Below, piece by piece: positions 1 through 35,847 of a stretch of DNA of 64,000 nt. A model generated the notes under the pieces. It searched no databases and had not been told where the DNA came from. It worked only from the letters and a program-made list of their open reading frames with translations. Location of the stretch: the IMG/VR virus record IMGVR_UViG_3300042880_000509. One strand, 5' to 3'. How positions within the stretch are numbered: position 1 is the first letter of the stretch; the number at the start of each line of letters is the position of its first letter. This stretch comes from a virus (Duplodnaviria > Heunggongvirae > Uroviricota > Caudoviricetes). Position numbers and translations under genes: made by a program.

Positions 1-2175
1 TTTTTTATCTTCAACAACATCAACCATAAAGTCATAAAAGTTTTCTGGAAATTCAACACCTCTAGTAAAATAATCAATCATTTTTTTAACCCTTTTTTCC
101 AATGTTTTGTTTTTATTGGTCTCTTCAGTTTCTTCTAATATTGTAGATCCTATTATTCCTTTAAAACTATAATTTATCGTAAAATCTTCAACATCAAGTT
201 TAATTTTTTCACATAATTCTTCTGAAAAATCTCTTAATACATCTCTAATTTCAAATTGTATTTCCCACCAGCTTTCTAGTTCTCTAACATAGTTACCAAA
301 TAAATTATATGGAGTATCATCATCAGTCATAATTAATTCAACAGTTCCTTCTTTAATAGAATAAACAAATTCATGAACATACCCATAATTTTTTACCGAC
401 AGTAGTTCAAATTTAAAATTATATCCCCCAGTTCCTCTTTGAATGTCGTTAGTGGAAAAAGTTTTTTTAGTAAGATATTTTGTTAATAACATTTCCGGAG
501 TTTCATTAAGAATCTTACCTAATCTTTCAATACCATTAACTCTTTGTATTGCCCTTATTAAACCCTCGTTATCAATAATTTTTAACATAGTTGATTTTAA
601 AGATGAACTTTTTTCTTCAGATTCATTTAATGGTTCACCACCAAACATTTTAGATTCTTTTTCCCTTCTTTTTTTTACACCAGGAAATCTGCGGAATGAC
701 CTTGAACTTTCTTTTTTGATTTGTTCTTTTGCTTTGTCCAATTCATTTTGTTTTACATATTTAATAAATTGACTCTTTTTGAAATTACCAATACCCATGT
801 TATACATCATTGAAATCATTGCATTATACATGTCTTGATCTATATCTGGTGTAATCCCGTCTTTTTCCCAATCATCAAGGATTTTATTTAATTGTTCCTT
901 TGTTTTATCAAGATCGTCTCTTAAAACTTCCTCTGCTTGTTTTTTTGTTATCTTTGTTTTACCAACAATAACTTTATTATACTTTGGAATGAATGGATAG
1001 TCTCCTCCGGTATTACCCATACTCTTGTCCCTAAAAATTGCATGACCATATCCTATTGTTTTGGCACCATCACCGATATCATATGCTGTTAAAACAGGTT
1101 CACCTCTATTTTCTATTGATCCCTCTTCATTTTTTATGTGCTGGACCAGTTTTTCATCGTAATCTCTGATTCTTTTTTTTGTTTGTATTTCAGGTTTCTT
1201 TTCGGTCTCTCCTTTTTTTTCACTACCTCCACCACCAGGAGCTTTTATTTGTTCCAAGTTTGGTTCTTCTTTTGTTAGATCATCATAGATATTATTCATT
1301 TGTGTTATTGAAAGTATCCCAACAAATGAATAAATAACATATTTTAAAATCTTATGTTTAATATTGTCACTAACATTTTTTATCTTATCAAATAATGTTT
1401 TGATATATGATATTGCTTGGTCTTTTGTTTTAACCCAATCAAGAGATTTATCAACATTCTTTTTAACTTCAAATTCCCATTCAGCGTCCGGTTTTTTTTC
1501 TTCATTAAGTATTCTACATAACTCAACAACTCTATCAAGATATCTTAAACTTTCTTCGTTCATATCTCTTGTATATTTTCTAAACCTACCAGGATTTGCT
1601 TTGATTGCCGACTTTGGGAATCTTGTTCCAACTCCTTGTCTTCTTGCCATTTTTAATGTTCTACCATATTCATCAAGATCCTTTTTCTTTCTACCTTGAC
1701 AATGTGCTTTTTGAGAAAATCCTTTTGGGTTATTACAATCAATTGATCTTTTATATTTTTCGGACCACTTCTCTGTTAATTCTTCATCTTTATGTTCTGG
1801 AAATATAAATTCAGAAAATGAACTTTTAGTTTCGGGTGTGACGTTTTTTGCAAGTTCTTTCCATTCATCACAATCTACACCACCACCCATCCATTCCCAA
1901 ACTTTAATATTGTTAGGTAAAACAGATTCAATCTTTTTTTTAATCCTTGAAAATTCACTATGTGGTGTGTGAAGTGCGGTAAAGATTGGAAAGATCTTAA
2001 CTTCATTAAAGGTTGGGAAGGCAACAATATAAAAACTACAAACTGACTTATTCGGTCTTACATGTTTTAAAATTAATTTTATTTTCCTTACATCTCGTAA
2101 AGATTTTTCATGTTGTTCTTGAGTGTATTCCTTATCCTCACCTTCTTTTAATATTTTATTCAAATAATCAAACAT
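1..2175 (-). CDS. Large (>725 aa, C-terminus beyond window) protein with internal GH24 T4-lysozyme-like domain; likely virion-associated cell-wall degrading protein
   Basis: Minus-strand ATG at 2175, open to the window edge. Translation contains EEGSIENRGEPVLTAYDIGDGAKTIGYGHAIF, matching the T4 lysozyme E..D..T-IG-GH catalytic motif, and MISMMYNMGIGNFKKSQF (GH24 helix). N-terminus MFDYLNKILKEGEDKE resembles the shared leader. A Gly-rich linker GGGGSEKKGETEKK follows. Confidence 0.7.
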   Translation of the reverse strand, partial: MFDYLNKILKEGEDKEYTQEQHEKSLRDVRKIKLILKHVRPNKSVCSFYIVAFPTFNEVKIFPIFTALHTPHSEFSRIKKKIESVLPNNIKVWEWMGGGVDCDEWKELAKNVTPETKSSFSEFIFPEHKDEELTEKWSEKYKRSIDCNNPKGFSQKAHCQGRKKKDLDEYGRTLKMARRQGVGTRFPKSAIKANPGRFRKYTRDMNEESLRYLDRVVELCRILNEEKKPDAEWEFEVKKNVDKSLDWVKTKDQAISYIKTLFDKIKNVSDNIKHKILKYVIYSFVGILSITQMNNIYDDLTKEEPNLEQIKAPGGGGSEKKGETEKKPEIQTKKRIRDYDEKLVQHIKNEEGSIENRGEPVLTAYDIGDGAKTIGYGHAIFRDKSMGNTGGDYPFIPKYNKVIVGKTKITKKQAEEVLRDDLDKTKEQLNKILDDWEKDGITPDIDQDMYNAMISMMYNMGIGNFKKSQFIKYVKQNELDKAKEQIKKESSRSFRRFPGVKKRREKESKMFGGEPLNESEEKSSSLKSTMLKIIDNEGLIRAIQRVNGIERLGKILNETPEMLLTKYLTKKTFSTNDIQRGTGGYNFKFELLSVKNYGYVHEFVYSIKEGTVELIMTDDDTPYNLFGNYVRELESWWEIQFEIRDVLRDFSEELCEKIKLDVEDFTINYSFKGIIGSTILEETEETNKNKTLEKRVKKMIDYFTRGVEFPENFYDFMVDVVEDKK

Positions 2176-3742
2176 TATTTTCAACCTTGTTTCTTAATAT
2201 TTTAATAAATTCGTTTTGGATTTCTTTAACCAAATCAACAAAAGATTTTTTAGGTGTGTCACTTGTTTGGGTTCCAAGTTTTCCTAACTTACTCATTGCA
2301 ACTTCTATTTGTTTGTCAGAAAGATTACCCCACTTTAATAATTTTCCTTTAATATCATTTAAAAAAGTATCATCACCTACATATGTTGCAATTGGTAATA
2401 GTTCTTCTGGAACATCATCTAATTTTGGTTCTTTTTTATTTCTATATAGATAATTAATTCCTGATATATTTGTTATACATTTGTGTCCACCACTATTTGC
2501 TTTTATAACATCTAAACCACTTACAGTTATTTTATCAAGTAATACTCTTTGTTTTTCAGATAGACTTCTGTATAGCTTTTCAGATACATTATCAAGTATT
2601 TCAAGTAATTTACTTCCACCATCAACTTTGAATGATGGTCTGTCGCTATATATTGCCATTAAGTCTTTTAATGTAAAACCAACTGAACTATATTCTGTTT
2701 CTAATTCTGCAATTCTTTTAAGATCACCGAATGTTATTTTTAAATTACTTAATTCGTTTGAAAATTTATCTAAAACCTCATCTTTGATTTCACCTAGATC
2801 AACACCTTTTAATGCTCTTTCTTTTTTAAATGGATTACAAGATGCTTGGACCATACCCATTGGCATACCAGTAACTAAAAAGTCTGCGTCCGGATTGTTT
2901 TTAAATGGTGTATAACGATCATAAGCTCCAGCTTTTGATGTACCACCAAAACCATATTGTGTAATTATATTTCCAAAAGTTTCAACACCTTTTTCTTTTC
3001 TACTTTGAATATAGTTTTCTTTATTTTTTGTCATCTGTTCAGGATTTGCGTATCCTTTTTCAGTCGCCTCTTTTCTAATGTTATTTAGAATACTAAGTAG
3101 TGATGGTTGTGAATTTAATACTAAACTATCTAAAAACCCTGGTTTATTTTTATATGCTAAAAGTAACTTGTTAACAACAAGACCCATCATCATTTTATTT
3201 CTTTTTAAACTCTCATCTTTGTTGTAATTAAACAAGTAATTCATAACCATTTCTGGTGTTATATCGTGTTTAACAAAGTCAGCAGAGTCAACCGTTGAGA
3301 TTAATAGAATATCTTCAGATGGAAATATCTCTTTTGGTGATATAGATTGAGATATTGTTTCTACATTTGACCTTGACTGTTTAAAGTTTGTTGATGTATT
3401 TTTTTCAACACCGGCTTGCGTATCGTGGTGATCTGTATGTATGACAAACATTGGTTTACCGTGAGCAAAATCAACAAGAACTGGCATCACATCACCTGAA
3501 GCGTCTGGTTTTTTAATTGCAAATTCTTTATTACCATATTGTATTAATTCAGCATCAACAACTTTAATTCCGTTTTGTTCCAAATAATTTTTCATAGCAA
3601 TTGCTGTTGTCACACCATCTAAATCCATGTGATAATAGATCTTTGCTTTCTTATATCTTCTAGCAAGATCTTTTATTCCTCTGATTCCACTCTCAAGAAG
3701 TAATGTTTCTTCTTTAAGTATTTTTCTAATAAGTTCTTTCAT
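2168..3742 (-). CDS. DHH-family phosphoesterase (524 aa) with shared N-terminal leader
   Basis: Motifs HMDLDGVTTAIA (DHH motif I), VLVDFAHG (II), HTDHHD (III) and a C-terminal SGGH (IV). N-terminus MKELIRKILKEET is the leader. Confidence 0.65.
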   Translation of the reverse strand: MKELIRKILKEETLLLESGIRGIKDLARRYKKAKIYYHMDLDGVTTAIAMKNYLEQNGIKVVDAELIQYGNKEFAIKKPDASGDVMPVLVDFAHGKPMFVIHTDHHDTQAGVEKNTSTNFKQSRSNVETISQSISPKEIFPSEDILLISTVDSADFVKHDITPEMVMNYLFNYNKDESLKRNKMMMGLVVNKLLLAYKNKPGFLDSLVLNSQPSLLSILNNIRKEATEKGYANPEQMTKNKENYIQSRKEKGVETFGNIITQYGFGGTSKAGAYDRYTPFKNNPDADFLVTGMPMGMVQASCNPFKKERALKGVDLGEIKDEVLDKFSNELSNLKITFGDLKRIAELETEYSSVGFTLKDLMAIYSDRPSFKVDGGSKLLEILDNVSEKLYRSLSEKQRVLLDKITVSGLDVIKANSGGHKCITNISGINYLYRNKKEPKLDDVPEELLPIATYVGDDTFLNDIKGKLLKWGNLSDKQIEVAMSKLGKLGTQTSDTPKKSFVDLVKEIQNEFIKILRNKVENNV

Positions 3743-4117: not shown

Positions 4118-4510
4118 TTACCAGTTTCTTTCTGTGTTGGTATTAATTTCTTCCTGGACTCTTACTAATGTTTTAATTTTATACTTTTTGAACATTCTTT
4201 CACCGATTGCGTATCCTATGTTATATAAACCAATTGCGTTTGTCCCACTATAATAATACACATTAATCCACACGATAAACCTTGGGTATTTATTACCGTA
4301 AATATCAAATCTTGATTCTTCTTTATTAATATCATTAATTTCAATTTTATCAATTAAGTTTGCAGCTTCACAATCATCAAATCCCAACCAACCAGGAAAA
4401 GTATCAGCATCCGGATCTTCCTCACAAATACTTTTAATTTCATCAAAGGTTGATAGAACTAATCTTTTAATTGTGTTTGAGAATTGACTTTCAGTTATTA
4501 GAAATTTCAT
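4118..4510 (-). CDS. Hypothetical protein with shared leader (MKFLITESQ...)
   Basis: 130 aa ORF. The N-terminal 20 aa match the leader seen on at least 10 other proteins. Confidence 0.6.
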   Translation of the reverse strand: MKFLITESQFSNTIKRLVLSTFDEIKSICEEDPDADTFPGWLGFDDCEAANLIDKIEINDINKEESRFDIYGNKYPRFIVWINVYYYSGTNAIGLYNIGYAIGERMFKKYKIKTLVRVQEEINTNTERNW

Positions 4511-5474: not shown

Positions 5475-6395
5475 CTACATCCTGTCTGAATACATTTCGT
5501 AAAACTTTTCTGGCATTTTTAAATGGTCAAGATTTATAGGTTCTGATTGTCCTTTATTTTCCAATCTTTTTATAAATTCACGGATTCTAGGATAACCGCT
5601 CCAGTTTTGCCATTTTGAAATTATTTTTACATTACTAGGTATTGATTCATACGTTTGTTTTGTTGTTGGGTCAATAAGTCCAACAAAGTCAAAATCATCT
5701 TTAATATGTTTCCAAGCTTGTGTTCCTCCAGCAGAAAAACCACTTACAGATTTTATCTTATAATCATTTATTCCATTTTTAGTTAAAACATTTTTTAAAG
5801 TATCCAATGAATTTTCAAAATTACTATAAACTACATTTCTATCCGAAAAATATTTATCACCACCATTATTTTTCATCCATTTTGCACCATAAGTAGAGCT
5901 AGGATAACCGCCCCAAATAACAGTAATATCATCCGAATCGGGATCGTTCATTTCTATAATATATGTTCCACCATTTATTGTTTTACTTTCTTTTTTTGTT
6001 TCTTGTTTTTTTGGTTCTGATTTTTTATTTTTTTCTTCAGTATCTTTTTCTTCTGTTTTTTTTGAGAGTATTGATTTTAATTTTTCAATATCTTCAGTAT
6101 TCATTGTTCCGGTAACTTCTAGTCCTTCTTCTTCTTGGAATTTTTTTACATTTTTTTCTGTTTCATTTCCGTATTTACCATCAATACCAAATTTACCAAA
6201 ACTATAACCTAATTTATCAAGACCGGCTTGAATTGCAGCAACACCTTTAGTAAATGAGTAATTATTCATTCCTTTTCTATGGATTTCTCCACCGTCAATA
6301 ATTTCATCTAAATCATTTATGTAATCTTCAAATGATTTATTTTCAAGTAATCTTATCAATCTAGAAGTTTGACTTTCAGTTAGTATTATTTTCAT
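5475..6395 (-). CDS. Peptidoglycan-binding domain plus serine hydrolase (alpha/beta, G-F-S-A-G nucleophile elbow) with shared leader
   Basis: PG_binding_1-like GLDKLGYSFGKFGIDGKYGNETEKNVKKFQEEEGLEVTG. Lys/Glu-rich linker. C-terminal domain with GFSAGG (GxSxG). N-terminus MKIILTESQTSRLIRLLE. Confidence 0.65.
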   Translation of the reverse strand: MKIILTESQTSRLIRLLENKSFEDYINDLDEIIDGGEIHRKGMNNYSFTKGVAAIQAGLDKLGYSFGKFGIDGKYGNETEKNVKKFQEEEGLEVTGTMNTEDIEKLKSILSKKTEEKDTEEKNKKSEPKKQETKKESKTINGGTYIIEMNDPDSDDITVIWGGYPSSTYGAKWMKNNGGDKYFSDRNVVYSNFENSLDTLKNVLTKNGINDYKIKSVSGFSAGGTQAWKHIKDDFDFVGLIDPTTKQTYESIPSNVKIISKWQNWSGYPRIREFIKRLENKGQSEPINLDHLKMPEKFYEMYSDRM

Positions 6396-6397
6396 AG

Positions 6398-7936
6398 TTA
6401 TGGTTGCATTATTGTTGAAACATATTCATATGTTTCTTTTGGTAATTTATCTTTAAGGTCTTTAAATGATGTCTTGTTTTTTAATGCGTCAAAATAAACT
6501 TGTTTACCTGACTTTGGTGGGTATTGATACCATGCTCCACTATTATATGCGGCAATAGCAAGATCTAATCTTCCTGGGAATCTTCTAACATTTTCTGACA
6601 TTAGTTTTACATAAGCAGGTAAAGCGTCTTCAACCTTACAAGGATCACCTTTACCATATGAAGGCCAAGTTGTTGGCATAAATTGTGCGATACCTCTTGC
6701 TCCGGCTGTAGATGTATTTTTACAACTTATAACAGATGGTGAAAAAGCAGATTCGGCATATAATTGTCTCATGGCATATTTTATTGGGATTCCACCACTT
6801 TCAACCTCTGATTTAAATTTATTAAAATTAACGCCTTGTATATTTTTAAATTGTTCTTCTAAGTTTGATGGTATACTTCTTATTTTCACACCTGGATTTG
6901 TTATAACAAAAGATGTATTTTCTTCTGAACCACCTGACCCTTTTTTAACATCTTCAATTTGTCTACCAGAATATGTTTTAAATATCTTTTGGGTTAATTT
7001 ATCTTGGGTTTTTAAATCAAAAATTCCACTTTCGTTTAATCCATTATTTTTTTGGAATTTAGTAATTGCAACTTTAGTATTTCCATCAAGAATCCCATTA
7101 ATTTCTATTGAGTTATCTTTTGTTACGATAAACAATATTACTTGCATCATTCTTATTTTTTTGTCAGAACTATTTTGGTCAACAACTTCATTAGTTTTTA
7201 AAAATTCAAAGTATCTTTCAAAAAACTTTTTAAACTTTTCTTTTTTATCGTCATTAGTATTACCAGTTGTTTGGGTTTGGTTTGTCTTTTTTGTTTCTTT
7301 GATATAAGTCTCAACATGATCTTTAATTGTTTTGTGGTTTGATGGTCCTATGTGTATTCCATCTCCTGCCGCCCAATTACCATCACCACTTACCGTTGGT
7401 ATTATAATAGCATTTTTAATTTGTGAAGAAAGATCTTTTTGTAATTGGATCATTCTTTCTCTTCCTTTATACATACAATTTTGATCACAAAGGACTCTAC
7501 CATCTGGATATTTAGTTGGTTTTAAATTCTTATCTGTCATAACAGAACCCGCTTCATATCCTAAAAAAACATAAGCCTGACCACCTTGTTCATTAACAAC
7601 ATCTACCATTTTTTGGATGTTTGTTACGGCATTTGATAAATTGGTTCCTACCCAAAAAGCATCATTTGTTCCGCCGTATATGAATACTTTATCGTATTTT
7701 TTTTCTTTTAGTTTTGGTAACATATTACTCAACATCCAGTCTGTTTTTTTTCCTCCTTCAACAACATGAGTAACATTCCAGTCTGGGTGTGCTTTTGATA
7801 ACAAATAATTCCAGGTTTTTCCTCCGGTACTTAAACTGTCGCCAACAAACATGACATTTTCTTTAACTCTATCGTCATTTTCAGTTATTAAATTAACAAG
7901 AAATTTGAATTGGTTTTCAGAGACAAGTATTTTCAT
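6398..7936 (-). CDS. Three-domain cell-wall enzyme: SGNH/GDSL hydrolase, peptidoglycan-binding domain and SLT lytic transglycosylase, with shared leader
   Basis: FVGDSLS (GDS motif) and GGTND (SGNH block III). PG_binding_1-like VAITKFQKNNGLNESG. C-terminal ES...GARGIAQFMPTTW...AAYNSG (SLT family 1). N-terminus MKILVSENQFKFLVNLITE. Confidence 0.75.
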   Translation of the reverse strand: MKILVSENQFKFLVNLITENDDRVKENVMFVGDSLSTGGKTWNYLLSKAHPDWNVTHVVEGGKKTDWMLSNMLPKLKEKKYDKVFIYGGTNDAFWVGTNLSNAVTNIQKMVDVVNEQGGQAYVFLGYEAGSVMTDKNLKPTKYPDGRVLCDQNCMYKGRERMIQLQKDLSSQIKNAIIIPTVSGDGNWAAGDGIHIGPSNHKTIKDHVETYIKETKKTNQTQTTGNTNDDKKEKFKKFFERYFEFLKTNEVVDQNSSDKKIRMMQVILFIVTKDNSIEINGILDGNTKVAITKFQKNNGLNESGIFDLKTQDKLTQKIFKTYSGRQIEDVKKGSGGSEENTSFVITNPGVKIRSIPSNLEEQFKNIQGVNFNKFKSEVESGGIPIKYAMRQLYAESAFSPSVISCKNTSTAGARGIAQFMPTTWPSYGKGDPCKVEDALPAYVKLMSENVRRFPGRLDLAIAAYNSGAWYQYPPKSGKQVYFDALKNKTSFKDLKDKLPKETYEYVSTIMQP

Positions 7937-7985
7937 TATATTGTGTTATTAACAATAAATACTATAAAAAATATAATGTTAAAGT

Positions 7986-8183
7986 TTAGTGATTCAATTT
8001 TACTTTCCAGAAGTTGAAAAGTTCTTTATTGTTATAGTTATTTTTTTTACTGTCCCAACCACACATGTGGCAAAGGTATGGATGTTGATCTTCTTTTTCT
8101 TTACTCCAAGAATGACCACATTTACATTTGATCTTCTCACCAAAAAGTTTTTCAGCTTGTTTTTCTGTGATTAGAATTTTCAT
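7986..8183 (-). CDS. Small Cys/His-rich protein with shared leader
   Basis: MKILITEKQAEKL leader. CKCGH...CHMCGW suggests a zinc-binding fold. Confidence 0.5.
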   Translation of the reverse strand: MKILITEKQAEKLFGEKIKCKCGHSWSKEKEDQHPYLCHMCGWDSKKNNYNNKELFNFWKVKLNH

Positions 8184-9034
8184 AGGTTGTTAAAATTTCC
8201 TTTTTTGATTTTTTTATCGTCCAAAATAAAACATTTGTTTTCAACATCAATTTTATAACTTTTGTTTGGAAATGAAATATAATCACCGGTTGTAATATCA
8301 ACCAACATAATGTTTTCAACCTTCATACCAAGATAATTCTTTGGTAGTGGTGTGTTTAATATTAATTTTCCATCTTCTTCTGACATACCAGTTAATTCCT
8401 TTACTTGGAAACTCTTTCCGTTAATCTCCAAATCAATTCCGTGATCTCTATCTTGTTTAGATCCTGGAGGAAAATATTTGATATCGTATTTAGAGTTTTT
8501 TAATTTGTCAATAACATATTTTTCAGTGATACTTCCTTTATTGTAGGTATTCATATTAGCCCTAATAAGTTCTTTTAAAATAGGACCTTCATTTAATAAC
8601 CTTTCTTTATTATCAACTAACCATTTATAAAAATCTTTTGGTGTTTCACCTTTCTTTTCTTTTTTGAATATGTTTAGCAATCTATCTTTAACAAATTTGT
8701 GACCACCAAAATAATTTAAAATTGACCAACTTGTTAGTTCGTTAAGTGGATGTATGTCAATAATACCGCGTTTACTTTTATCTTCGTTCCAATCCAAATT
8801 ATCTTTATAAATTTCAAACAATAATTTATTTAAAAATTTAGCAAACCTACTATTATTTTGGATAAATTCAATATTTAAATTTCCTGGGTTGTTATCTTCT
8901 GAATCCACAATATTAATATAACCTTCTAATGATTTATCATTATTATTTTGATTAAAGTCAATTTCCATTTGATTTTCTGTTAGTCCCATCAAACTCAAAT
9001 TTCTTTTTATTTCGTTAATTATTGTTTTTTCCAT
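8180..9034 (-). CDS. Hypothetical protein (284 aa)
   Basis: Long ORF in coding-like sequence. Start overlaps the upstream gene stop (ATGA), suggesting translational coupling with the paralog array. Confidence 0.55.
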   Translation of the reverse strand: MEKTIINEIKRNLSLMGLTENQMEIDFNQNNNDKSLEGYINIVDSEDNNPGNLNIEFIQNNSRFAKFLNKLLFEIYKDNLDWNEDKSKRGIIDIHPLNELTSWSILNYFGGHKFVKDRLLNIFKKEKKGETPKDFYKWLVDNKERLLNEGPILKELIRANMNTYNKGSITEKYVIDKLKNSKYDIKYFPPGSKQDRDHGIDLEINGKSFQVKELTGMSEEDGKLILNTPLPKNYLGMKVENIMLVDITTGDYISFPNKSYKIDVENKCFILDDKKIKKGNFNNL

Positions 9035-9705
9035 TATTCAAAATTCTCCTCTTTTAATATTATTGGTTCACCTTTTGTAGTATTTCTTTCAACCCATACA
9101 TGATATAAATAACCATTATTATTTTGATTGTATAATTTTAATACTCCGTTACCACCGGCGTCTTCATCCCAACTATCGGTTTCTAATACTTCACTAATCA
9201 TCATTATTACGTCATAAGCAAAAAATCTGGTGTCTTGACGATTTAATTCCTTATTATTATATGTTATTGTACAGTCAAAATTATTTTCGTGTCCAGAATA
9301 ATCAATTATAAGTTCTTCAAGTTCCATATCTTCCATAAATTTTGATAGTGAATAATAGTCTCTTAATTGTCTCCAATCAAATTTCCTATTATCTTTTGAT
9401 TCTGTATATGTAAAATATTTTGGTATTAACATTATTTCTCTTTTTTTTGGATAAACACTAAAATCAACCCAGTATGCTGGTTCGTGTTTATCTGTTCTAT
9501 TATAAAGTTCTTCACCATAATTGGTTAGTATTGAATGAAAAAACTTTTTAAATATATCAATAATTGTAAATCTATGAGTTCTTTCTGTTACCCAATTTTC
9601 AGGAAAATGCTCAATATCACCAATCAACATATCAATATTTGTTCCTATTGGCCCAATTGGATTAAGGTATGCCATTAGTGCTCTAAATGTTCTTTTTTTT
9701 AACAT
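9034..9705 (-). CDS. Tandem-paralog family member 1 (223 aa), most divergent copy
   Basis: N-terminus MLKKRTFRALMAYLNPIG. Shares the YPKK..I and W-x-DAGGNG motifs with the neighbouring copies. Confidence 0.6.
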   Translation of the reverse strand: MLKKRTFRALMAYLNPIGPIGTNIDMLIGDIEHFPENWVTERTHRFTIIDIFKKFFHSILTNYGEELYNRTDKHEPAYWVDFSVYPKKREIMLIPKYFTYTESKDNRKFDWRQLRDYYSLSKFMEDMELEELIIDYSGHENNFDCTITYNNKELNRQDTRFFAYDVIMMISEVLETDSWDEDAGGNGVLKLYNQNNNGYLYHVWVERNTTKGEPIILKEENFE

Positions 9706-9710
9706 ATTAT

Positions 9711-10388
9711 TTAAGGTAAAGAATCTTCTGTTATTTCAATATCAATTTCATTTGAATCATCGTCCTCAGTATTCCACTCGTGATTAACACTTATTTCATC
9801 TTTTGTAAATACAATATTTCCTTGTGATCCTTCATTTATTTCCCAGCCCCCATATTCTTCGAGTAAATCATAGCAAATATGTTCAATATCTTCATCTATT
9901 TGTCCATTCTTATTTTTAGATGTATAATCACTTTCAATGTATCCGGAATCACCACCACCATTATAACTTATAGTCATATCTTCAATTCCTTCGTGTTCTA
10001 AGAATTTTCTTACTTCCATAAATGTAGAATACATACCATCATCTTCTTCATAATCATCAATATATACTTCATATCCACTATCTGATGTGCCGTATGATGT
10101 AAACCTAACTTGGTTAAAAACAATTTTATTTTCAAACGGATAAATCTCTCCATCAACATAAAAATAATCACTTGCACTTTGTACAGAGCCAGGACCTTCA
10201 TCGTATAATTCATTGGTATATAGTTCAAGAATTGTTTGGAGATGTGATTCAAAATTTGATGTAATATCAACACCGTAATAAATATTTATATCTTCAATAT
10301 GAGTTTCACTTATTGTAATTTCAAAAGGTATTGATTCCTTTTTAAACCCTTTCAGGTATGCCATTAACATTTTAAATTTTTTTTTCAT
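9711..10388 (-). CDS. Tandem-paralog family member 2 (225 aa)
   Basis: MKKKFKMLMAYLKGFKK. Contains IYPFENKIVF, NGGGDSGYIES, GGWEINEGSQGNIVF and HEWNTED. Confidence 0.65.
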   Translation of the reverse strand: MKKKFKMLMAYLKGFKKESIPFEITISETHIEDINIYYGVDITSNFESHLQTILELYTNELYDEGPGSVQSASDYFYVDGEIYPFENKIVFNQVRFTSYGTSDSGYEVYIDDYEEDDGMYSTFMEVRKFLEHEGIEDMTISYNGGGDSGYIESDYTSKNKNGQIDEDIEHICYDLLEEYGGWEINEGSQGNIVFTKDEISVNHEWNTEDDDSNEIDIEITEDSLP

Positions 10389-11086
10389 TATTGGTAAGTA
10401 TCTAAATTTATTTCTAATCTCATATCAGTTGGTTCGTAATCTTGATCTTTGGTAAAACCTTTTACAAAAATACTGTCACCCCAAACTATAATGTTTCCTT
10501 CAGCACCGGCTTCCATATTCCAAAACCTACTATTAGTTATTTTTTGCATAAGTTCATTAGTAATCATCCATAAATCTTCACTCATTTGATTGGTAATTTT
10601 AATTAGTTGTCCATCAAGTTCAAGATCGTAAATATGACCATCATCCCAACGACCATAAAAATCAAATTCAAATTTTACTAGGTCTTCATTATCTTCATAA
10701 AATGATAATATTCTTTCTTTACTTTCTTTTGACATATCACCATAATATGTATCATATTTAAATCTTTCTCTATTTTCAACTTTACATGAAGATGTAAAAA
10801 TAATTTTATTTTCAAATGGATGTATTTCAATATTCAAATACCAATATTCGTCAATATCTAAATCAAGATAGTTATAAAAATCATCCATGTGATTTTTAAT
10901 TAATTCTTCTATGAATTTTTCAAAATGTGATGGTAATAATAGTCTTTTTGTATTTCTTTGTTCATTTGTCACATCAAATCTACCCCAATCTTCAATGTGA
11001 GTCCTATCCATTACAATAGAAGTATCAACAAGATGTCCTTTGAGTCCTCTTAAAAAAGCAAAAAATAATTTTAATCTTTGTTTCAT
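10388..11086 (-). CDS. Tandem-paralog family member 3 (232 aa)
   Basis: MKQRLKLFFAFLRGLKG. Contains IHPFENKIIF and WNMEAGAEGNIIVWG. Shares 1 nt with the neighbouring gene. Confidence 0.65.
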   Translation of the reverse strand: MKQRLKLFFAFLRGLKGHLVDTSIVMDRTHIEDWGRFDVTNEQRNTKRLLLPSHFEKFIEELIKNHMDDFYNYLDLDIDEYWYLNIEIHPFENKIIFTSSCKVENRERFKYDTYYGDMSKESKERILSFYEDNEDLVKFEFDFYGRWDDGHIYDLELDGQLIKITNQMSEDLWMITNELMQKITNSRFWNMEAGAEGNIIVWGDSIFVKGFTKDQDYEPTDMRLEINLDTYQ

Positions 11087-11772
11087 TCTTCTATATTGTC
11101 CGGTGTTACATTTATATTCATTTCTGTCATCTCATGATCTTTGGATTTTGTAAAAAATTCCATTCTTATTGATTTATCTTTCTCAACGTAAATTGTACCG
11201 TAACTACCAGGTCCATCAGTCCACCATCTGTCAAGAATATTTGTCATTAATTGATCTGTTAACTCAATATAATTTATATCGTCATTTATAAAAATATAAA
11301 AATCAAGGTTAACATCTATTTGATCATAATTACCATTAAATTCAAAATTAAATTTATCTTTATCTTTTAGATCTTCATTAAATATTGTATCAACTAAATC
11401 AAGAGTAGTTGTTGATAATTGTGTATTTTTTCTATTTAAACTAAATGTTTGTTGGCCATCATATTCGCTTACTATCTCACATTCGCTTTGAAAATTTATT
11501 CTATTTTGTTTTGGGTAAACATATACAAGTAATGTCCACCATTCACTTTCATCATAATCGTTTTCTCTGTGAAACTTTTGCATATATGATTTTAATATGT
11601 CCTCAAATGTCTCTTGTAATTTTGTTGGTAATTCTATTTCTTTACCTTCTTTGGTTGTAAATTTTAAATCCCAACTTTCCATATGGTTATAGTCAAAATT
11701 GATATATGTATCCAATACATCTGTTTTAAATGCTCTAAAATATGCAAGTAATAATTTTAATTTTTGTTTCAT
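11083..11772 (-). CDS. Tandem-paralog family member 4 (229 aa)
   Basis: MKQKLKLLLAYFRAFKT. Contains VYPKQNRINF and WWTDGPGSYGTIYVE. 4-nt overlap with the neighbouring gene. Confidence 0.65.
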   Translation of the reverse strand: MKQKLKLLLAYFRAFKTDVLDTYINFDYNHMESWDLKFTTKEGKEIELPTKLQETFEDILKSYMQKFHRENDYDESEWWTLLVYVYPKQNRINFQSECEIVSEYDGQQTFSLNRKNTQLSTTTLDLVDTIFNEDLKDKDKFNFEFNGNYDQIDVNLDFYIFINDDINYIELTDQLMTNILDRWWTDGPGSYGTIYVEKDKSIRMEFFTKSKDHEMTEMNINVTPDNIEE

Positions 11773-12437
11773 TCTTCCAGGTCATCTTCTTTAATTTCAA
11801 TTGTATCATGACAATCAACCATTTCTCTCATATTCCATTCGTGAGAAATTACAATTTCCAAATTATTATTTAATTCAATTGTTCCGACAGATCCGTCATC
11901 TATCTCCCAACCACCGTAAGCGTTTTCTAGATTATCATAAAGTGTGTTCCAAATTAATTTATTGTCATCACTATCTGAATGCCAGGTAATGTTTGAACTT
12001 TCACCATCAACTGTTATTGAATCGATATCTCCGCTGTCTCCACCACCACTATATCTTGCTTCAATTATTTCAACACCAGTTGTTTTAAAATAATCTTCTA
12101 ATTCTGGGTTTTTTAATTTTCTTTCATAAGTTTCAGCTTGTGATGTATATTCTTCTGCTTTCATTGAAACCACAATTTTTTTATCTTTCGGGTATATGTC
12201 GGCAATTACATTATAGTAATCGCTTTCACTCCAGCAATCTATATCATTTATTTGATCTTCTATTGACTCTAAAATATCAGTAATAAGGTTAACAATATTT
12301 TTAGGTAGTGATTGTATTTCAACACCAAAAGGCCATTGCCATTCAGTATTACCATCATAATTGTTCCATATAACAGATATTTTGTCCTTTTTGAGTTTAG
12401 ACAAAAAAGACATTAACATTCTAAATTTTCTTTTCAT
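11769..12437 (-). CDS. Tandem-paralog family member 5 (222 aa)
   Basis: MKRKFRMLMSFLSKLKK. Contains IYPKDKKIVV, YSGGGDSGDIDS, GGWEIDDGSVGTIEL and SHEWNMRE. 4-nt overlap with the neighbouring gene. Confidence 0.65.
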   Translation of the reverse strand: MKRKFRMLMSFLSKLKKDKISVIWNNYDGNTEWQWPFGVEIQSLPKNIVNLITDILESIEDQINDIDCWSESDYYNVIADIYPKDKKIVVSMKAEEYTSQAETYERKLKNPELEDYFKTTGVEIIEARYSGGGDSGDIDSITVDGESSNITWHSDSDDNKLIWNTLYDNLENAYGGWEIDDGSVGTIELNNNLEIVISHEWNMREMVDCHDTIEIKEDDLEE

Positions 12438-12450
12438 ATTTTATAAATAC

Positions 12451-12804
12451 TTAGTCATCAAATTTAAGATCAAGTGTTCTCATCATCCACATAGGTTTTT
12501 CTTTGGCTTCAATTGCTTTTATCCATTCTTTTGCCGATGGAATATAATTAAAACAATCTTCTTTTACGTGATCCTCACCAACATATCTGGTATAAACCTT
12601 TTTTCCGTCACTATTTTCAAATGATTCTCCGAATATTTTTTCACATTCAAATATACCTTCTGAATGGTGTCTAAACATTCTGTGTGTTGAATGTCCTATC
12701 CAGGATTTTGTTTGATCAAACCAATTATGGATGTGAATGTAGTCTTCTACTTTTCCCCCGTATTTCTTAACGGAACTTTTTGCATGAATTAATGGGTGTG
12801 CCAT
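12451..12804 (-). CDS. His-rich hypothetical protein (117 aa), first gene of the minus-strand operon containing the paralog array
   Basis: Non-repetitive ORF with multiple His (IHIHNWF, HSTHRMFRHHSEG). Divergent from the plus-strand gene at 12867. Confidence 0.55.
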   Translation of the reverse strand: MAHPLIHAKSSVKKYGGKVEDYIHIHNWFDQTKSWIGHSTHRMFRHHSEGIFECEKIFGESFENSDGKKVYTRYVGEDHVKEDCFNYIPSAKEWIKAIEAKEKPMWMMRTLDLKFDD

Positions 12805-12866: not shown

Positions 12867-13559
12867 ATGAAAAACCTTATTAGGAAAATATTAAAAGAAG
12901 AGACATCTGACAGAGCAAAAGAAAAACTTGTAAAGCCATATCTTTCAAAATTTGAAAATGTTGGTTATGTTGAAAACGATGATATACCATATTTTGAATC
13001 TAATAGTTTAAATGAGAATAGTAATCCAGTCAAAAACTTTTGGTTTAAAAAATGGACCAAACAAAAAGAAAAGGGTGAGAATCCATCAATTTATGATATT
13101 GAAAAGTTAGGGTTTTCTAATAAAAGAAATGAGATTGTTCAATACTTTGTAGATTTTATGGGTTACGGTGATGGAAACACAAGATCTAACGCTATTAAAC
13201 AATATCTCTTAAATCATACTTTTACGGAGAAAGAAATTACCGAAATGGATAACTTTGATCAGGGTAAAATTCAAATAAGATTTAATAAAGTTCAATTTTT
13301 AGAAAGTCAAAATAATTACGGTAAAAACTTTTTAGATTTAGATTGCGAATTTGTTGTTTTAAGTGGTTCATTTTATAATAGTGAAGAAGGTGAAACTTAT
13401 AACTTTTCAAGTGACGATAATCCATTTGATGATTTTGTAACATACTTTGAGTTTAAAGAAGAAATAGAACAAGTTGTTGAGAGTTTTGTACATAAAGTTG
13501 TTGAGTTGTTTGGTTTTAATATAAACAATGATTTTGATTATATCAGTGTAAAATGGTAA
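12867..13559 (+). CDS. Hypothetical protein with shared leader (MKNLIRKILKEET)
   Basis: 230 aa. Leader nearly identical to that of the DHH protein. Stop overlaps the next start (TAATG). Confidence 0.6.
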   Translation: MKNLIRKILKEETSDRAKEKLVKPYLSKFENVGYVENDDIPYFESNSLNENSNPVKNFWFKKWTKQKEKGENPSIYDIEKLGFSNKRNEIVQYFVDFMGYGDGNTRSNAIKQYLLNHTFTEKEITEMDNFDQGKIQIRFNKVQFLESQNNYGKNFLDLDCEFVVLSGSFYNSEEGETYNFSSDDNPFDDFVTYFEFKEEIEQVVESFVHKVVELFGFNINNDFDYISVKW

Positions 13560-14134
13560 TGAAAAATTTAATTAAAAAAATATTAAAGGAAGAGGAAGGT
13601 AATAAGGTTGTAAAAAACTATGTTACTAAAATGTTTAAAAAACAAGTTGATTCTGGTTTAACACCACGCATACCATATGAAGATTTACGAAAAAAAAAAC
13701 TTACCCAACATATTGAGCTAATTGATAAATGGTATTTTGAATTTTTGGAAAATCATTATGGTGTTAGTAGTGGTTTTGAAAAAGCTAAAACTTTATATGA
13801 AGAAGCGGTTAAGACTGTTACTGAAAAGGATTTAAAAAGTGTTGACATTGATACTGGCCAAGACAAATTTTTGGTATCAATTCCCTGGATAGAGTTTTAT
13901 GATATAGATTCTGAAAGAAGAAATGTTGTTTTTGGTTTTGCGATAATTGACTGTTATTTAGAAACTGATAATGGAATGAAAACATATGAAGAAATGTTAG
14001 ATAATACGTTTCCAGATTACATGTGGAATGATGTAACTGATATTTTAAGACAACAAATTGAGGAATATGTTCAAATTAGGGGTTACGATTTTGGTCTTGA
14101 TATTCTTGTTTCAGAATCGGTTTGGTCTGATTAA
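13559..14134 (+). CDS. Hypothetical protein with shared leader (MKNLIKKILKEEE)
   Basis: Start taken at the second ATG (13559), overlapping the upstream stop. Followed by a hairpin terminator. Confidence 0.6.
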   Translation: MKNLIKKILKEEEGNKVVKNYVTKMFKKQVDSGLTPRIPYEDLRKKKLTQHIELIDKWYFEFLENHYGVSSGFEKAKTLYEEAVKTVTEKDLKSVDIDTGQDKFLVSIPWIEFYDIDSERRNVVFGFAIIDCYLETDNGMKTYEEMLDNTFPDYMWNDVTDILRQQIEEYVQIRGYDFGLDILVSESVWSD

Positions 14135-18275: not shown

Positions 18276-19874
18276 ATGATACATTCACGTAAACTAATAT
18301 TATTTTCATCAATATCTTTGATGTTCATATTCCTATTAACTAAAACATTAATTTTATTAAATTTAGTTAGTCCTAGCGACATCACAAGGGTTATTGAAAT
18401 GTTTTGTTTTTTAACATTTTCACCATTATTTTATTTTTTAATGAAAAAACAAAATGTGGACTTGAAAAGTGGTTTATTAAAACAAATTAAAGATAGTGAA
18501 GAATTTATTGATTCCGCAACAATTGTTTCTGTTGCCGATAAGTATGGTAAAATCACATACGTTAATAAAAAATTTGAAGAAGTTTCTGGGTGGTCTTTAG
18601 ATGAGGTTAAAGGTATGGATCATAGTGTTGTTAACTCTGGCTTGCAACCTGATGGGTATTGGGGAAAGATGTATGAGACTGTAATGAAAGGTGAGATATG
18701 GAATGATGTTGTTACAAATAAAGGAAAGTCGGGTGAACTATATTATGTTGATACATACATCAAAGCAAAATTTGATAAGAAGGGTAAGTTAGATGGGTTT
18801 TCATCCATCAGACAAGATGTTACAGAACTTAAAAGAAAAGAAATGGAAATCCGTAATAGAATGAACGCAATAAATAAATCTAATGCTGTTATTGAGTTTG
18901 ATTTAGAAGGAAACATCATTTTTGCTAATGAATTGTTTTTAAATACTATGGGTTATTCTTCGCCGGATGAAGTAATTGGGAAACACCACAGAATTTTTAT
19001 TGATGAAGATCACTTAAAAAGTGAGGAATATTCTATTTTTTGGAAAAAACTAAATGATGGTATATTATTTACTGGTGAAATTACTAGAGTCAAAAAAGAC
19101 GGGTCTTTAGTTTATTTACAAGCAACTTACAACCCAATTATTGGTGTGGATGGTAAGATTTATCGTGTTATGAAAATAGCAACAGACGTAACCAATTCTT
19201 ATGAACAAAAGAAAGAGATAGAAAAGAAAAATACCTATTTAGAACACGCTGCTAAAATATTAAGACACGATATGCACTCTGGTATTAACACATATATGCC
19301 AAGAGGGTTAAGTTCTTTAGAAAGAAGGTTAAGTTCTGAAGATATTACATCGTTAAAGATTGAAGCTCCAATTAGAATGATTAAAGAAGGATTAAAACAT
19401 TCTCAAAAAGTATATAAAGGAGTTTATGAATTTACCAATCTAGTTAAAAAAGATGTTGTTTTAAATAAAACTGAATGTAATTTAAAATCAATTTTATCTG
19501 ATTACCTATCATCAACAGCATATTTAAGTCAAGTAATTATTGAAGACTTACCTACAATAGAAGTAAACGAAGCGTTATTTTGTACCGCAGTTGATAATTT
19601 AATTAGAAACGGTTTAAAATATAACGATTCAGATACCAAATTTGTTAAAATTTATTCCGATGAGAATAATATTTACATACAAGATAACGGTAGAGGAATC
19701 ACACAAGAAGATTTTGATCACTTATCTAAACCATACACAAGAAAAGAAGGGCAAAAAGAATCTGGTACTGGTTTAGGTTTAAATATTTGCGTTGCTATTT
19801 TAGAAGAGCACGGGTTTAATATTACTTGTGAGAAAAATGAAATAGGAACAAAAATGAAAATAAAAATAAAATAA
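18276..19874 (+). CDS. Membrane-anchored sensor histidine kinase with two PAS domains
   Basis: Two N-terminal hydrophobic helices. PAS 1: ATIVSVADKYGKITYVNKKFEEVSGWS...DGFSSIRQDVTE. PAS 2: AVIEFDLEGNIIFANELF...DGKIYRVMKIATDVT. H-box region AAKILRHDMHSG. HATPase_c N-box NLIRNGLKYN, G1 DNGRGI, G2 GTGLGLNI. Confidence 0.8.
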   Translation: MIHSRKLILFSSISLMFIFLLTKTLILLNLVSPSDITRVIEMFCFLTFSPLFYFLMKKQNVDLKSGLLKQIKDSEEFIDSATIVSVADKYGKITYVNKKFEEVSGWSLDEVKGMDHSVVNSGLQPDGYWGKMYETVMKGEIWNDVVTNKGKSGELYYVDTYIKAKFDKKGKLDGFSSIRQDVTELKRKEMEIRNRMNAINKSNAVIEFDLEGNIIFANELFLNTMGYSSPDEVIGKHHRIFIDEDHLKSEEYSIFWKKLNDGILFTGEITRVKKDGSLVYLQATYNPIIGVDGKIYRVMKIATDVTNSYEQKKEIEKKNTYLEHAAKILRHDMHSGINTYMPRGLSSLERRLSSEDITSLKIEAPIRMIKEGLKHSQKVYKGVYEFTNLVKKDVVLNKTECNLKSILSDYLSSTAYLSQVIIEDLPTIEVNEALFCTAVDNLIRNGLKYNDSDTKFVKIYSDENNIYIQDNGRGITQEDFDHLSKPYTRKEGQKESGTGLGLNICVAILEEHGFNITCEKNEIGTKMKIKIK

Positions 19875-19891: not shown

Positions 19892-20329
19892 ATGATTGAT
19901 TCAATTTTATTGGTGGATGATGAGGATTTATTCCATTTGGTGTTTGAGGATGCTTGTTCGTTATTAGACATAAGTTTGTCTTTAAATGCGTTAAATAGTT
20001 CTGACGAGGCAGCAAAACTATTTCAAAAATGGTTCCAGGATGGTGACAATAATGATAAACCTGAATGTGTGTTTGTTGACTTAAACATAATTGGTAGTTC
20101 TTTTGATGGTATAGAGTTAATTAGAAAAGTTAATTTTGAATATGGTAATCACGTAGTTATTGGTATCATATCATCATCAAACGAACCGGAAGAACAAGCA
20201 AAAGCGCTCCAGGCTGGTGCTCAATTCTGGATTATTAAATCAGATGATATTGAACCTCGTTTAGAAGAGTTCAGAAAAGATTATGATGGGTATAAAAATA
20301 GAACAGCACCATTTAAAGTATATAAATGA
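19892..20329 (+). CDS. Stand-alone response-regulator receiver (REC) domain protein
   Basis: ILLVDDE (acidic pocket), VFVDLNIIG (phospho-acceptor Asp), GIISSS (conserved S/T) and FWIIKS (conserved Lys). No output domain. Confidence 0.75.
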   Translation: MIDSILLVDDEDLFHLVFEDACSLLDISLSLNALNSSDEAAKLFQKWFQDGDNNDKPECVFVDLNIIGSSFDGIELIRKVNFEYGNHVVIGIISSSNEPEEQAKALQAGAQFWIIKSDDIEPRLEEFRKDYDGYKNRTAPFKVYK

Positions 20330-21000
20330 TAAGGTTAGATAAAAATAGTGAAACAGATTTAATTAAACTCTTTGAGTCCAAGAACGTTGGGCTTGAGGGG
20401 AATGTTATTAAATTAATTGAGTCTGATAACGACGAATTTAAAACCTATCTAACTAAATGTACTGATAAAGATAAAGATTCCAGACGTAAACGATTAGAGA
20501 TAACAAAAAAAATACAATTACAAAACAATGAATTATCTGATCTAAACGAACAGAATCAAAAGATGATGGAGGATCTTCAGTCCACACTAAAAGAAGCTGA
20601 AGAACAAAAAGTAAAAATTGAGGCTCAGAATGGTGAGTTAGTCGCTTGGAGAGAAGAGAACGAAAAGATACAACAGGAATTACAAAAGGAGATGATTAAA
20701 TCTGAAAGTGCAAGAATACGTGCCGAAGAAGCAAAGACAAACGCAATCAACGATCTTGACATCCTCCAAAAGAAAAACCAAACGGAATTAATATCAACAA
20801 TTGTAAGGGTTGCCCTTTATATTATTGTTGGTGTTGGTATTGTTACTACCGGAGTATATGTATTCACTATTGTTATGGGTAAAGACACACAAGTTATTAG
20901 TGCCGCTTGGTCAAACATATTTGGTATACTTCTAACAAACGCATTCTCAATTGTGGGAACCATTATGGGTATTAAATACGCAACAGAAAATAAACAATAA
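20326..21000 (+). CDS. Coiled-coil protein with two C-terminal transmembrane helices; possible lysis regulator/holin-like component
   Basis: About 150 aa of heptad-like E/K/Q-rich sequence, then IVRVALYIIVGVGIVTTGVYVFTIVMG and WSNIFGILLTNAFSIVGTIMGI. 4-nt overlap with the REC gene. Lies immediately upstream of the endolysin. Confidence 0.55.
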   Translation: MIRLDKNSETDLIKLFESKNVGLEGNVIKLIESDNDEFKTYLTKCTDKDKDSRRKRLEITKKIQLQNNELSDLNEQNQKMMEDLQSTLKEAEEQKVKIEAQNGELVAWREENEKIQQELQKEMIKSESARIRAEEAKTNAINDLDILQKKNQTELISTIVRVALYIIVGVGIVTTGVYVFTIVMGKDTQVISAAWSNIFGILLTNAFSIVGTIMGIKYATENKQ

Positions 21001-35559: not shown

Positions 35560-35847
35560 TTATTTTTTTACAATAGCTTTTGTGAGCTGGTTTATCAGTC
35601 CTTGGACTTCTCCGAAATTATTGAACCGGATTTGTGGATCGGTATTAAAAACCTCAACATACCAATTGTCTTCTTTTATTTCTTCATTTGTTGGTGTGAT
35701 AAATGTCAACCCATCAACAATATCAAGGGCATAGTAATACGAATCATCTTCATCGTGTTCTTTAATTTCTTCACTTTTAAAACCTAAAAGTATTAATTCT
35801 CTTTCTGTCATATTATTTTGTTTCAACAATGTTATAAGTTCCTTCAA
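35560..35847 (-). CDS. Hypothetical protein (95 aa)
   Basis: ORF. Confidence 0.45.
   Translation of the reverse strand: MKELITLLKQNNMTERELILLGFKSEEIKEHDEDDSYYYALDIVDGLTFITPTNEEIKEDNWYVEVFNTDPQIRFNNFGEVQGLINQLTKAIVKK

Follow-up and report, generated by a model that had tools for sequence, protein, structure and literature searches.

A phage protein that joins an SGNH esterase to a lytic transglycosylase, very likely a bifunctional cell-wall enzyme

We identified, in a 64-kb stretch of phage DNA (the whole of which is hereafter called the window), a protein in which a 20-residue N-terminal tag is followed by an SGNH esterase, a PG_binding_1 module and an SLT lytic transglycosylase (Table 1). 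In the window ORF list it is encoded on the minus strand by a single ATG-to-TAA frame without interruption (512 aa). The protein is very likely a bifunctional wall enzyme whose two catalytic domains both act on the envelope. We consider the chances even that the esterase removes the 6-O-acetyl group of MurNAc so that the transglycosylase can cut. The lineage-wide N-terminal tags are a more unusual feature than the fusion of the three domains.

Table 1. Features of the esterase-transglycosylase gene and of its surroundings (positions in the window)
Feature	Position	Strand	Remarks
Whole ORF, 512 aa plus TAA stop (6398-6400)	6398..7936	-	Tag, SGNH, PG_binding_1, SLT
N-terminal tag, 20 residues, MKILVSENQFKFLVNLITEN	7877..7936	-	M1, E7, Q9 and E19 invariant
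SGNH/GDSL esterase domain, residues 25-212	7301..7864	-	
SGNH catalytic Ser34	7835-7837	-	
SGNH block II, Gly62	7751-7753	-	
SGNH block III, Gly89/Asn91	7664-7672	-	
SGNH block V, Asp192	7361-7363	-	
SGNH block V, His195	7352-7354	-	
Peptidoglycan-binding module, helical, residues 229-320	6977..7252	-	Pfam PG_binding_1 core 276-314 = 6995-7111
SLT/GH23-type family-1 lytic transglycosylase domain, residues 343-512	6401..6910	-	Pfam core 387-468 = 6533-6778
SLT catalytic Glu395-Ser396	6749-6754	-	Further motif residues G415/Q418, Y464-N465-x-G467
Downstream gene	5475..6395	-	Same tag, PG_binding_1, C-terminal domain with GFSAG motif
Upstream Cys-rich ORF, 65 aa	7986..8183	-	Same N-terminal tag; ortholog tagged in distant genomes too
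TATTTAT, candidate phage promoter element	7955..7961	-	Starts 25 nt upstream of the ATG of the esterase-transglycosylase gene
PGB-GH19 endolysin-type protein	21011-21835		Preceded by 2-TM ORF
GH24 lysozyme domain in protein of >725 aa	1-2175		

Domain architecture and catalytic sites

Pfam identifies SLT (PF01464; 43.6 bits against a cut-off of 21.3, residues 387-468) and PG_binding_1 (PF01471; 30.1 bits against 23, residues 276-314). Lipase_GDSL_2 (residues 30-197) scores 31.8 bits in this sequence, 1.1 bits under the cut-off of 32.9, and 33-45 bits in its homologs. NCBIfam returned weak domain-level matches and nothing more. The PHROGs matches are confined to the SLT and peptidoglycan-binding parts and include an endolysin, an internal virion protein with an endolysin domain and lytic tail proteins, the best being phrog_669 ('endolysin'). 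In the PDB, the binding module matches the peptidoglycan-binding domains of CtpB and 5tv7, and the best match of the SLT domain is a tape-measure protein.

AlphaFold2 predicts three confident domains for the full-length protein (mean pLDDT 82.8, pTM 0.43), with disordered linkers between them at residues 215-228 and 327-342; this pTM leaves the relative placement of the domains undefined. Modelled on its own, the SGNH domain has a pLDDT of 95.4 and a pTM of 0.91, and it shows blocks I, II, III and V, the alpha/beta/alpha three-layer fold and the HMM match expected of the SGNH superfamily. An earlier note on this DNA had placed the three domains in this order in one polypeptide and had proposed structure prediction and a Pfam search as a check; these identify SGNH, PGB and SLT domains, and the alignment agrees.

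Conservation was read from a 30-sequence alignment with identity down to 39%. Invariant in the SGNH domain are G32-D33-S34, G88-G89-x-N91, D192 and H195, with G62 and D92 each kept in at least 90% of the sequences; in the SLT domain they are E395-S396, G415/Q418 and Y464-N465-x-G467. Two cysteine pairs are also invariant, the family-specific C150/C154 in the SGNH domain and C405/C433 in the SLT domain. The earlier note had named absence of the catalytic Ser, Asp and His as one point on which its reading would fail, and all three are invariant (S34, D192 and H195). The motifs that it quoted are all in the protein: VMFVGDSLS (Ser34), YGGTND (Asn91), GIAQFMPTTW and AAYNSG. Block V (D192-x-x-H195), which its motif list lacked, is present as well.

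Neither catalytic centre lacks a residue, and purifying selection acts on both. Given the invariant catalytic residues and the confidently predicted domain folds, the SGNH and SLT enzymes are both very probably active, and their fusion is under selection.

A family found in uncultured large phages

A search of a 5.8-billion-protein collection places at least 355 protein clusters in the family. Among the 120 best of these clusters, GDSL and SLT occur together in 107, with PG_binding_1 also present in 91; the binding module is missing from some family members. With the two catalytic domains joined in so many of the best clusters, the fusion is due neither to chance nor to a frame artefact.

The contigs that carry the family are phage-like and up to 292 kb long, the longest being a metagenome contig (Ga0209296_1000009), and relatives occur on IMG/VR viral contigs of up to 261 kb. 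Their G+C content is 27-33%, except for one contig of 41% G+C (L102), in which the SGNH part alone was matched, at 32% identity. Full-length tblastn against 50,697 deposited phage genomes gave SLT-domain matches only, and the SGNH domain alone had no match in these genomes at E<=1. No full-length relative was found in the GTDB genomes. Represented by at least 355 clusters from large uncultured phages but in none of the 50,697 deposited genomes, the family is therefore an untouched enzyme class.

Lipase_GDSL_2 has been listed as an odd domain, with 'no obvious role', in putative endolysins of uncultured phages (PMC5968864), and the model aligns over 520 columns to UniProt A0A6J5PIJ1. That entry is a 438-aa 'SGNH_hydrolase domain containing protein' of an uncultured Caudovirales phage, with no characterisation. 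In the literature and databases we found neither a characterised phage enzyme with the SGNH-PGB-SLT order nor a publication proposing a de-O-acetylation role for this architecture. The remark in the earlier note that it was aware of no characterised phage enzyme with this domain order stands to that extent, although co-occurrence of the domains was already in the databases (PMC5968864, A0A6J5PIJ1).

A minimal SGNH esterase outside the Ape1 family

A profile of the SGNH domain only, searched against PDB sequences, matches a putative PAF-acetylhydrolase (2hsj, E = 8.8e-7) and also Bacteroides GDSL-like and sialate-O-acetylesterase-like proteins; no Ape1 chain was among the matches, even at E<=10. 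Foldseek of the full model returned generic small SGNH esterases (TesA/lysophospholipase L1, acetyl-xylan esterase, sialate esterase and PAF-acetylhydrolase), with E. coli TesA/lysophospholipase L1 among the solved matches at the top (TM 0.64-0.72). In Ape1, the SGNH domain is combined with an extra beta-sandwich (CBM-like) domain, and this two-domain layout was sought in our protein and not found. Judged by sequence and architecture, the domain is not a member of the Ape1 family. It is a minimal SGNH esterase that stands closest to small-acyl and carbohydrate esterases, and the characterised folds nearest to it are carbohydrate acetylesterases. The modelled fold does not discriminate substrate, and the fold ranking mixes peptidoglycan enzymes with other SGNH esterases.

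MurNAc is O-acetylated in a wide range of bacteria, Bacteroidota among them, and this modification blocks both lytic transglycosylases and lysozymes. Lytic transglycosylases require the free C6 hydroxyl of MurNAc, and in Neisseria the esterase Ape1 and the transglycosylase LtgA form a complex with mutual stimulation (PMC7083599, PMC1199599). The phage protein likewise pairs an SGNH esterase with a family-1 lytic transglycosylase, and the proposed chemistry is identical, but the Neisseria complex is non-covalent, whereas here the esterase and the transglycosylase lie in one chain. The suggestion of a built-in Ape therefore holds in part: the catalytic sites of both domains are intact and the chemistry is sound, but the domain does not belong to the Ape1 family and the module is shuffled among partners.

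The SGNH module in other settings

A module 77% identical to the window copy occurs in related phages, where it lies C-terminal to a Peptidase_M23 domain in P0105. In P0104 it lies C-terminal to a sequence with the LAS-type H..D...HxH motif (read by eye), which makes an LAS-type peptidase the probable partner. SGNH and PGB are followed in P0101 by the C-terminal domain of the gene directly downstream of ours in the window, which replaces SLT, and in P0111 SGNH precedes a domain without assignment. SLT is by far the most frequent partner of the module. We know of no peptidases that need de-O-acetylation. Because the same module is joined to M23, to the probable LAS peptidase and to another domain, its sequence relatives mark it as a shuffled wall-acting accessory and not as a dedicated primer of transglycosylases. 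The 64-kb window contains no second SGNH copy and no M23 or LAS partner.

The SGNH-only profile also finds many standalone proteins of 185-240 aa. All 12 that we inspected have an export signal, either a signal peptide or a signal anchor, immediately ahead of the (L/I)LFVGDS strand. On the strength of these signals, we conclude that the phage-borne SGNH subfamily acts beyond the cytoplasm, on the envelope. The standalone genes are on phage-like contigs, one of 236 kb; one gene lies downstream of giant virion-type proteins, and another has a PG_binding_1 gene and a further GDSL gene next to it.

Genomic context and probable host

The window has about 29% G+C and its genes are mostly on one strand; no tRNAs were found in it. 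The recognised genes encode an RNA ligase, a UvrC-like nuclease, and SET-domain, Band_7 and TonB_C proteins, along with a histidine kinase with a response regulator, and there are tandem lipoprotein-like ORFs. No structural genes are among the recognised ORFs. A Shine-Dalgarno motif is near-absent (4 of 110 window genes).

The ATG of the downstream gene starts 2 nt after the stop codon of the esterase-transglycosylase gene, and the two are probably co-transcribed. In a PDB sequence search, the peptidoglycan-binding part of the downstream protein alone was matched, and its C-terminal GFSAG domain was without a match. The TATTTAT element sits in the 49-nt spacer upstream of the esterase-transglycosylase ORF. 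It occurs at 15 genes, with about 1.2 expected, and is enriched before tagged genes (5/9 vs 10/101, p=0.002). Scans of the window for sigma-70 promoters (39 vs 35.8) and for terminators (1 vs 1.5) gave numbers at the shuffle background.

The PGB-GH19 gene is kept in L094 and L095 beside a hydrophobic ORF that is holin-like as judged from sequence, and among cultured phages its product is closest to proteins of Flavobacterium and Cellulophaga phages that are annotated as endolysins. Because of these affinities, the TonB_C protein, the lipoprotein-like ORFs and the scarcity of Shine-Dalgarno motifs, the host is probably Gram-negative and perhaps a member of the Bacteroidota. GTDB matches had offered an Actinomycetota host. 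We rejected this candidate: the SLT part alone was matched, almost always in Actinomycetota, we take the result as a bias of the search pattern and the database composition, and TonB_C, the lipoproteins, the SD-less starts and GH19 all disagree with it. In Bacteroides, 27-69% of the peptidoglycan is O-acetylated (PMC1199599), and by analogy O-acetylated peptidoglycan is a plausible substrate in Bacteroidota-type hosts.

Tags at the N-termini of unrelated proteins

Position 17 of the tag is always I or L in the 30-sequence alignment, and the AlphaFold model gives the tag as a low-confidence helix. A signal peptide was ruled out, as the tag is charged and without a hydrophobic stretch. A DNA-level cassette was ruled out too, as the tagged genes use different synonymous codons and have unrelated sequences upstream; it is the protein sequence of the tags that is conserved, not the DNA. 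In a search with a profile of the tag, matches to four other window ORFs coincided exactly with the start codons (i-E between 2e-4 and 4e-3; the following match had 0.3), and orthologous and unrelated ORFs in related genomes, including distant ones, were matched as well.

There are at least three tag types in the phage lineage: MKI.I(S/T)E.Q..L, MK.LIRKILKEE and MNLQENIQRI..MMG. MK.LIRKILKEE is found on other proteins, including SET and DHH-like ones, and a profile of it built from window sequences alone finds start-codon matches in distant genomes. MNLQENIQRI..MMG is lineage-wide and has no significant match in the window, where ORF 8180-9034 is vaguely similar. Phosphatase-like proteins carry further tag types. 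A literature search with the literal tag sequences returned nothing relevant. Common N-terminal tags of this kind could reveal a set of packaged or co-targeted proteins from sequence alone.

The conserved (I/L)17-x-E19 fits the cleavage consensus of the T4 prohead protease. The match is too short to prove anything, and the motif is common in AT-rich proteomes. The internal proteins of T4 are diverse, and the sole feature common to them is a capsid-targeting sequence (PMC3012670). The tags resemble that sequence in being short N-terminal peptides on unrelated proteins with an (I/L)-x-E site, but there is no sequence similarity.

Proposed mode of action

We infer the following substrate and order of action. 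In a Gram-negative host, probably of the Bacteroidota type, the enzyme would act in the periplasm, anchored to the sacculus by its PG_binding_1 module. The SGNH domain (Ser34 as the nucleophile, Gly62 and Asn91 in the oxyanion hole, Asp192-His195) would hydrolyse a small acyl ester on a wall glycan, for which the 6-O-acetyl group of MurNAc is the best candidate. Its loss would free the C6 hydroxyl, and the SLT domain (Glu395) would then cut MurNAc-GlcNAc bonds, leaving 1,6-anhydroMurNAc. The flexible linkers would put both catalytic domains within reach of neighbouring residues of the same strand. De-O-acetylation would also aid the GH19 and GH24 glycan-cleaving enzymes of the phage. The earlier proposal that the fusion lets the phage cut O-acetylated walls autonomously is overstated, because the window also encodes the PGB-GH19 protein, the GH24 lysozyme domain and the neighbouring PGB protein with a putative hydrolase domain.

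Two other substrates were considered. The SGNH domain could be a TesA-like lipid or lysophospholipid esterase that acts on membrane lipids or the acylated envelope and aids the breach of the outer membrane while the transglycosylase cuts. Phages do have accessory lysis esterases, such as LysB, many family members are named 'lysophospholipase L1-like esterase' by JGI, and E. coli TesA/lysophospholipase L1 is among the top solved structural matches; we nevertheless think this function improbable. It is also quite unlikely that the SGNH domain de-O-acetylates a glycan other than peptidoglycan (capsule, LPS O-antigen or another wall polysaccharide), so that its link to the transglycosylase is merely physical. 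The esterases of phage tail fibres do act in this way, but our protein is without a fibre, trimerisation or beta-helix domain, its binding module puts it on the sacculus, and its standalone relatives are inner-membrane-anchored proteins that face the periplasm, not proteins of the virion exterior. Removal of the MurNAc 6-O-acetyl group remains the reading that we prefer. If true, a phage enzyme with its own de-O-acetylase would show a phage route past MurNAc O-acetylation, and would be a natural template for engineered lysins against O-acetylated, lysozyme-resistant walls.

Lysis or genome entry

No ORF with TM segments is predicted between 3.5 and 9.8 kb of the window, and no holin- or spanin-like genes were found near the esterase-transglycosylase gene; it therefore lacks the adjacent membrane-protein lysis gene of a canonical endolysin. 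The PGB-GH19 protein is probably the canonical endolysin. Because that protein exists and has a membrane-protein neighbour, and our protein has none, the latter is unlikely to be the primary endolysin and is likely either to assist in lysis or to serve entry after delivery with the virion.

The enzyme may well be a late accessory endolysin, although we stop short of calling this probable. It would pass to the periplasm through holin lesions and complete lysis together with the GH19 enzyme, much as LysB does with LysA. It lacks a signal peptide, like canonical holin-dependent endolysins, and the combination of PGB with a catalytic domain is the modular design of Gram-negative endolysins, in keeping with the 'endolysin' phrog_669 as the top match. 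GDSL-containing proteins of uncultured phages have been classed as putative endolysins (PMC5968864), and the standalone SGNH relatives act from inside the infected cell. Such a role fits less well with a tag that is common to non-lytic enzymes, with the lack of an adjoining membrane-protein gene and with the conserved GH19 endolysin already there.

More tentatively, the protein could be packaged in the capsid by means of its N-terminal tag, ejected at infection and used to open the wall locally for genome entry. The tag may be removed at (I/L)17-x-E19, other tagged effectors may accompany it, and an esterase that primes the transglycosylase would be compatible with this timing. The tags argue for delivery in the virion in that they stand at the exact N-termini of unrelated proteins in the window and in distant relatives, are kept at the protein level, and in their other types mark SET, DHH-like and phosphatase-like proteins, which have no periplasmic business. 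T4 offers the precedent of diverse internal proteins with a common capsid-targeting sequence (PMC3012670). For the SLT domain, internal virion and tail lysins are among the best PHROG matches, and a tape-measure protein is the best PDB match. In addition, a PGB-GH19 gene with a membrane-protein neighbour lies elsewhere in the window, and no gene of the holin or spanin kind was found near ours. However, the region of the window looks non-structural, with no structural gene or prohead protease recognised, (I/L)-x-E is a short motif that AT-rich proteomes often contain, and Sec export of the standalone SGNH relatives takes place from the infected cell, so that they act from within. That the tags as a class are capsid-targeting or ejection signals, marking the esterase-transglycosylase, the PGB-hydrolase and the SET methyltransferase, DHH-like and phosphatase-like proteins for injection, with our enzyme de-O-acetylating and then cutting the wall, is in our view unlikely. 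Were the tags packaging or ejection signals, they would provide a sequence-readable catalogue of the injected effectors of a jumbo phage.

Comparison with known phage enzymes

Endolysins of Gram-negative phages of the phiKZ gp144 (KZ144) type have an N-terminal PG_binding_1 module and a C-terminal lytic transglycosylase or GH19 domain. Our protein is like them in its PG_binding_1 module followed by an SLT-type domain and in the lack of a signal peptide, and the PGB-GH19 protein of the window is the GH19 version of this design. Unlike them, it has in addition an SGNH esterase and a conserved N-terminal tag, and its gene is not beside holin- or spanin-like genes.

Mycobacteriophage LysB is a cutinase-like alpha/beta hydrolase that acts on mycolyl-arabinogalactan and is a separate protein. 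It resembles our protein as an esterase of phage origin that supports a peptidoglycan hydrolase, in some cases with a PG-binding domain of its own, but the esterase described here adopts the SGNH fold and shares a chain with the transglycosylase.

The SLT domain matches the transglycosylases of internal virion and tail proteins (T7 gp16 type, phrog_342; tape-measure protein, PDB 9b45), in line with a possible role in entry. Those domains are within very large structural proteins, whereas ours is in a 512-aa soluble-type protein from a non-structural region, for which a link to the virion is hypothetical.

The SGNH esterases of tail fibres and tail spikes (G7C gp63.1, PDB 4qnl; Pectobacterium phage PP99) are receptor-binding trimers on the outside of the virion; our protein, in contrast, has no fibre domains and would be tethered to peptidoglycan. 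SGNH domains are thus known in phage tail fibres, and they also occur in tail proteins of staphylococcal phages (PMC6540549).

N-terminal tags shared among unrelated ORFs

The first ~20 residues of the esterase-transglycosylase protein form a short tag, MK(I/F)(I/L)(I/L/V)(S/T)E.Q, that opens five otherwise unrelated ORFs of the window. With a profile of the first 20 residues of the target family, every tagged window ORF is matched precisely at the start codon, with i-E values between 2e-4 and 4e-3; the next-best match is at 0.3. The tag is kept in distant relatives, both on orthologs and on other ORFs, and is conserved at the protein level, not at the DNA level.

Two further tags were identified. 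The second, MK.LI(R/K)KILKEE, is carried by a DHH-like protein of 524 aa, a SET-domain protein and two unknown proteins, and a profile built from window sequences only recovers it at start codons of a genome with a 44%-identical target homolog. The third, MNLQENIQRI..MMG(L/I), opens five consecutive ORFs of the related locus L096 and also occurs on ORFs of five other related loci; its carriers include a dual-specificity-phosphatase-like protein, and it has no significant match within the window.

Coordinates of features in the window and in related phage-like loci (L handles)
Feature	Locus	Coordinates	Strand
Target-type tag	window	4118-4510	-
Target-type tag, PG_binding_1, GFSAG domain	window	5475-6395	-
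Target-type tag (target)	window	6398-7936	-
Target-type tag	window	7986-8183	-
Target-type tag	window	52612-53847	-
Second tag	window	2168-3742	-
Second tag	window	12867-13559	+
Second tag	window	13553-14134	+
Second tag	window	52166-52600	-
Second tag	L004	14525-15115, 15340-15894, 17016-17618	
Third tag, five ORFs	L096	5628-9898	-
Third tag	L085, L087, L090, L091		
Third tag	L003/L004	21051-21497	
TATTTAT example	window	7955-7961	-
GH24-domain protein	window	1-2175	-
Five DUF6878-like paralogs	window	9034-12437	-
DUF6915	window	12451-12804	-
PAS-domain histidine kinase	window	18276-19874	+
Response regulator	window	19892-20329	+
224-aa ORF	window	20326-21000	+
PG_binding_1 + GH19	window	21011-21835	+
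Three lipoprotein-like ORFs	window	35813-36539	-
TonB_C-domain protein	window	38922-39623	-
Lipoprotein-like ORF	window	57323-57973	-
Tandem SGNH-SLT genes	L086	10001-11347, 11347-12660	
Hsp70/DnaK-like protein	L094	15004-16863	-
Hsp70/DnaK-like protein	L095	14892-16751	-

Expression signals

The heptamer TATTTAT lies within 30 nt upstream of the start codons of 15 window genes (~1.2 expected), mostly 11-25 nt ahead of the ATG. It is commoner before tagged genes (5/9 vs 10/101; Fisher p=0.002), and is a candidate phage promoter marking one expression class. Shine-Dalgarno-like motifs are almost missing across the whole window, being found at -20 to -5 in 4 of 110 genes, fewer than in a control region. 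This scarcity suggests a host with SD-independent initiation, e.g., Bacteroidota.

Other wall enzymes

The product of the gene adjoining the target starts with the tag and also has PG_binding_1; its C-terminal domain, which contains a GFSAG (GxSxG-like) motif, gave no convincing family match. In the related protein P0101 this domain stands in the place of SLT after an SGNH-PG_binding_1 unit, and thus modules have been shuffled among these enzymes. In the related locus L086, SGNH-SLT genes lacking PG_binding_1 occur as a tandem pair (448 and 437 aa), preceded by another tagged ORF of 291 aa. The gene cluster of the target encodes yet another wall enzyme, a >725-aa protein cut by the window edge, with a GH24 phage-lysozyme domain at residues 362-507.

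The PG_binding_1 + GH19 gene and the preceding ORF, with two predicted TM segments, are probably a canonical endolysin cassette. Over its full length, the GH19 protein shares 68.6% identity with one from a 635-kb uncultured huge phage (LR745206.1); with Flavobacterium phage endolysins the figure is 60.7%.

Other genes

The histidine kinase and response regulator constitute a phage-borne two-component system; their genes lie in a stretch of raised G+C (~34%) and are read from the opposite strand. The lipoprotein-like ORFs (the three small tandem ones with a lipobox ending in SC) and the TonB_C-domain protein are envelope-related, Gram-negative genes in a phage. Upstream of the target, the tandem DUF6878-like paralogs (~225 aa each) and adjoining DUF6915 gene keep their arrangement in L001, L003 and L004; the window DUF6915 protein shares 61-66% identity with proteins from large Bacillus phages. 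Near the target gene, the distant relatives L094 and L095 encode a 619-aa protein that is Hsp70/DnaK-like, a likeness seen in its N-terminal sequence only.
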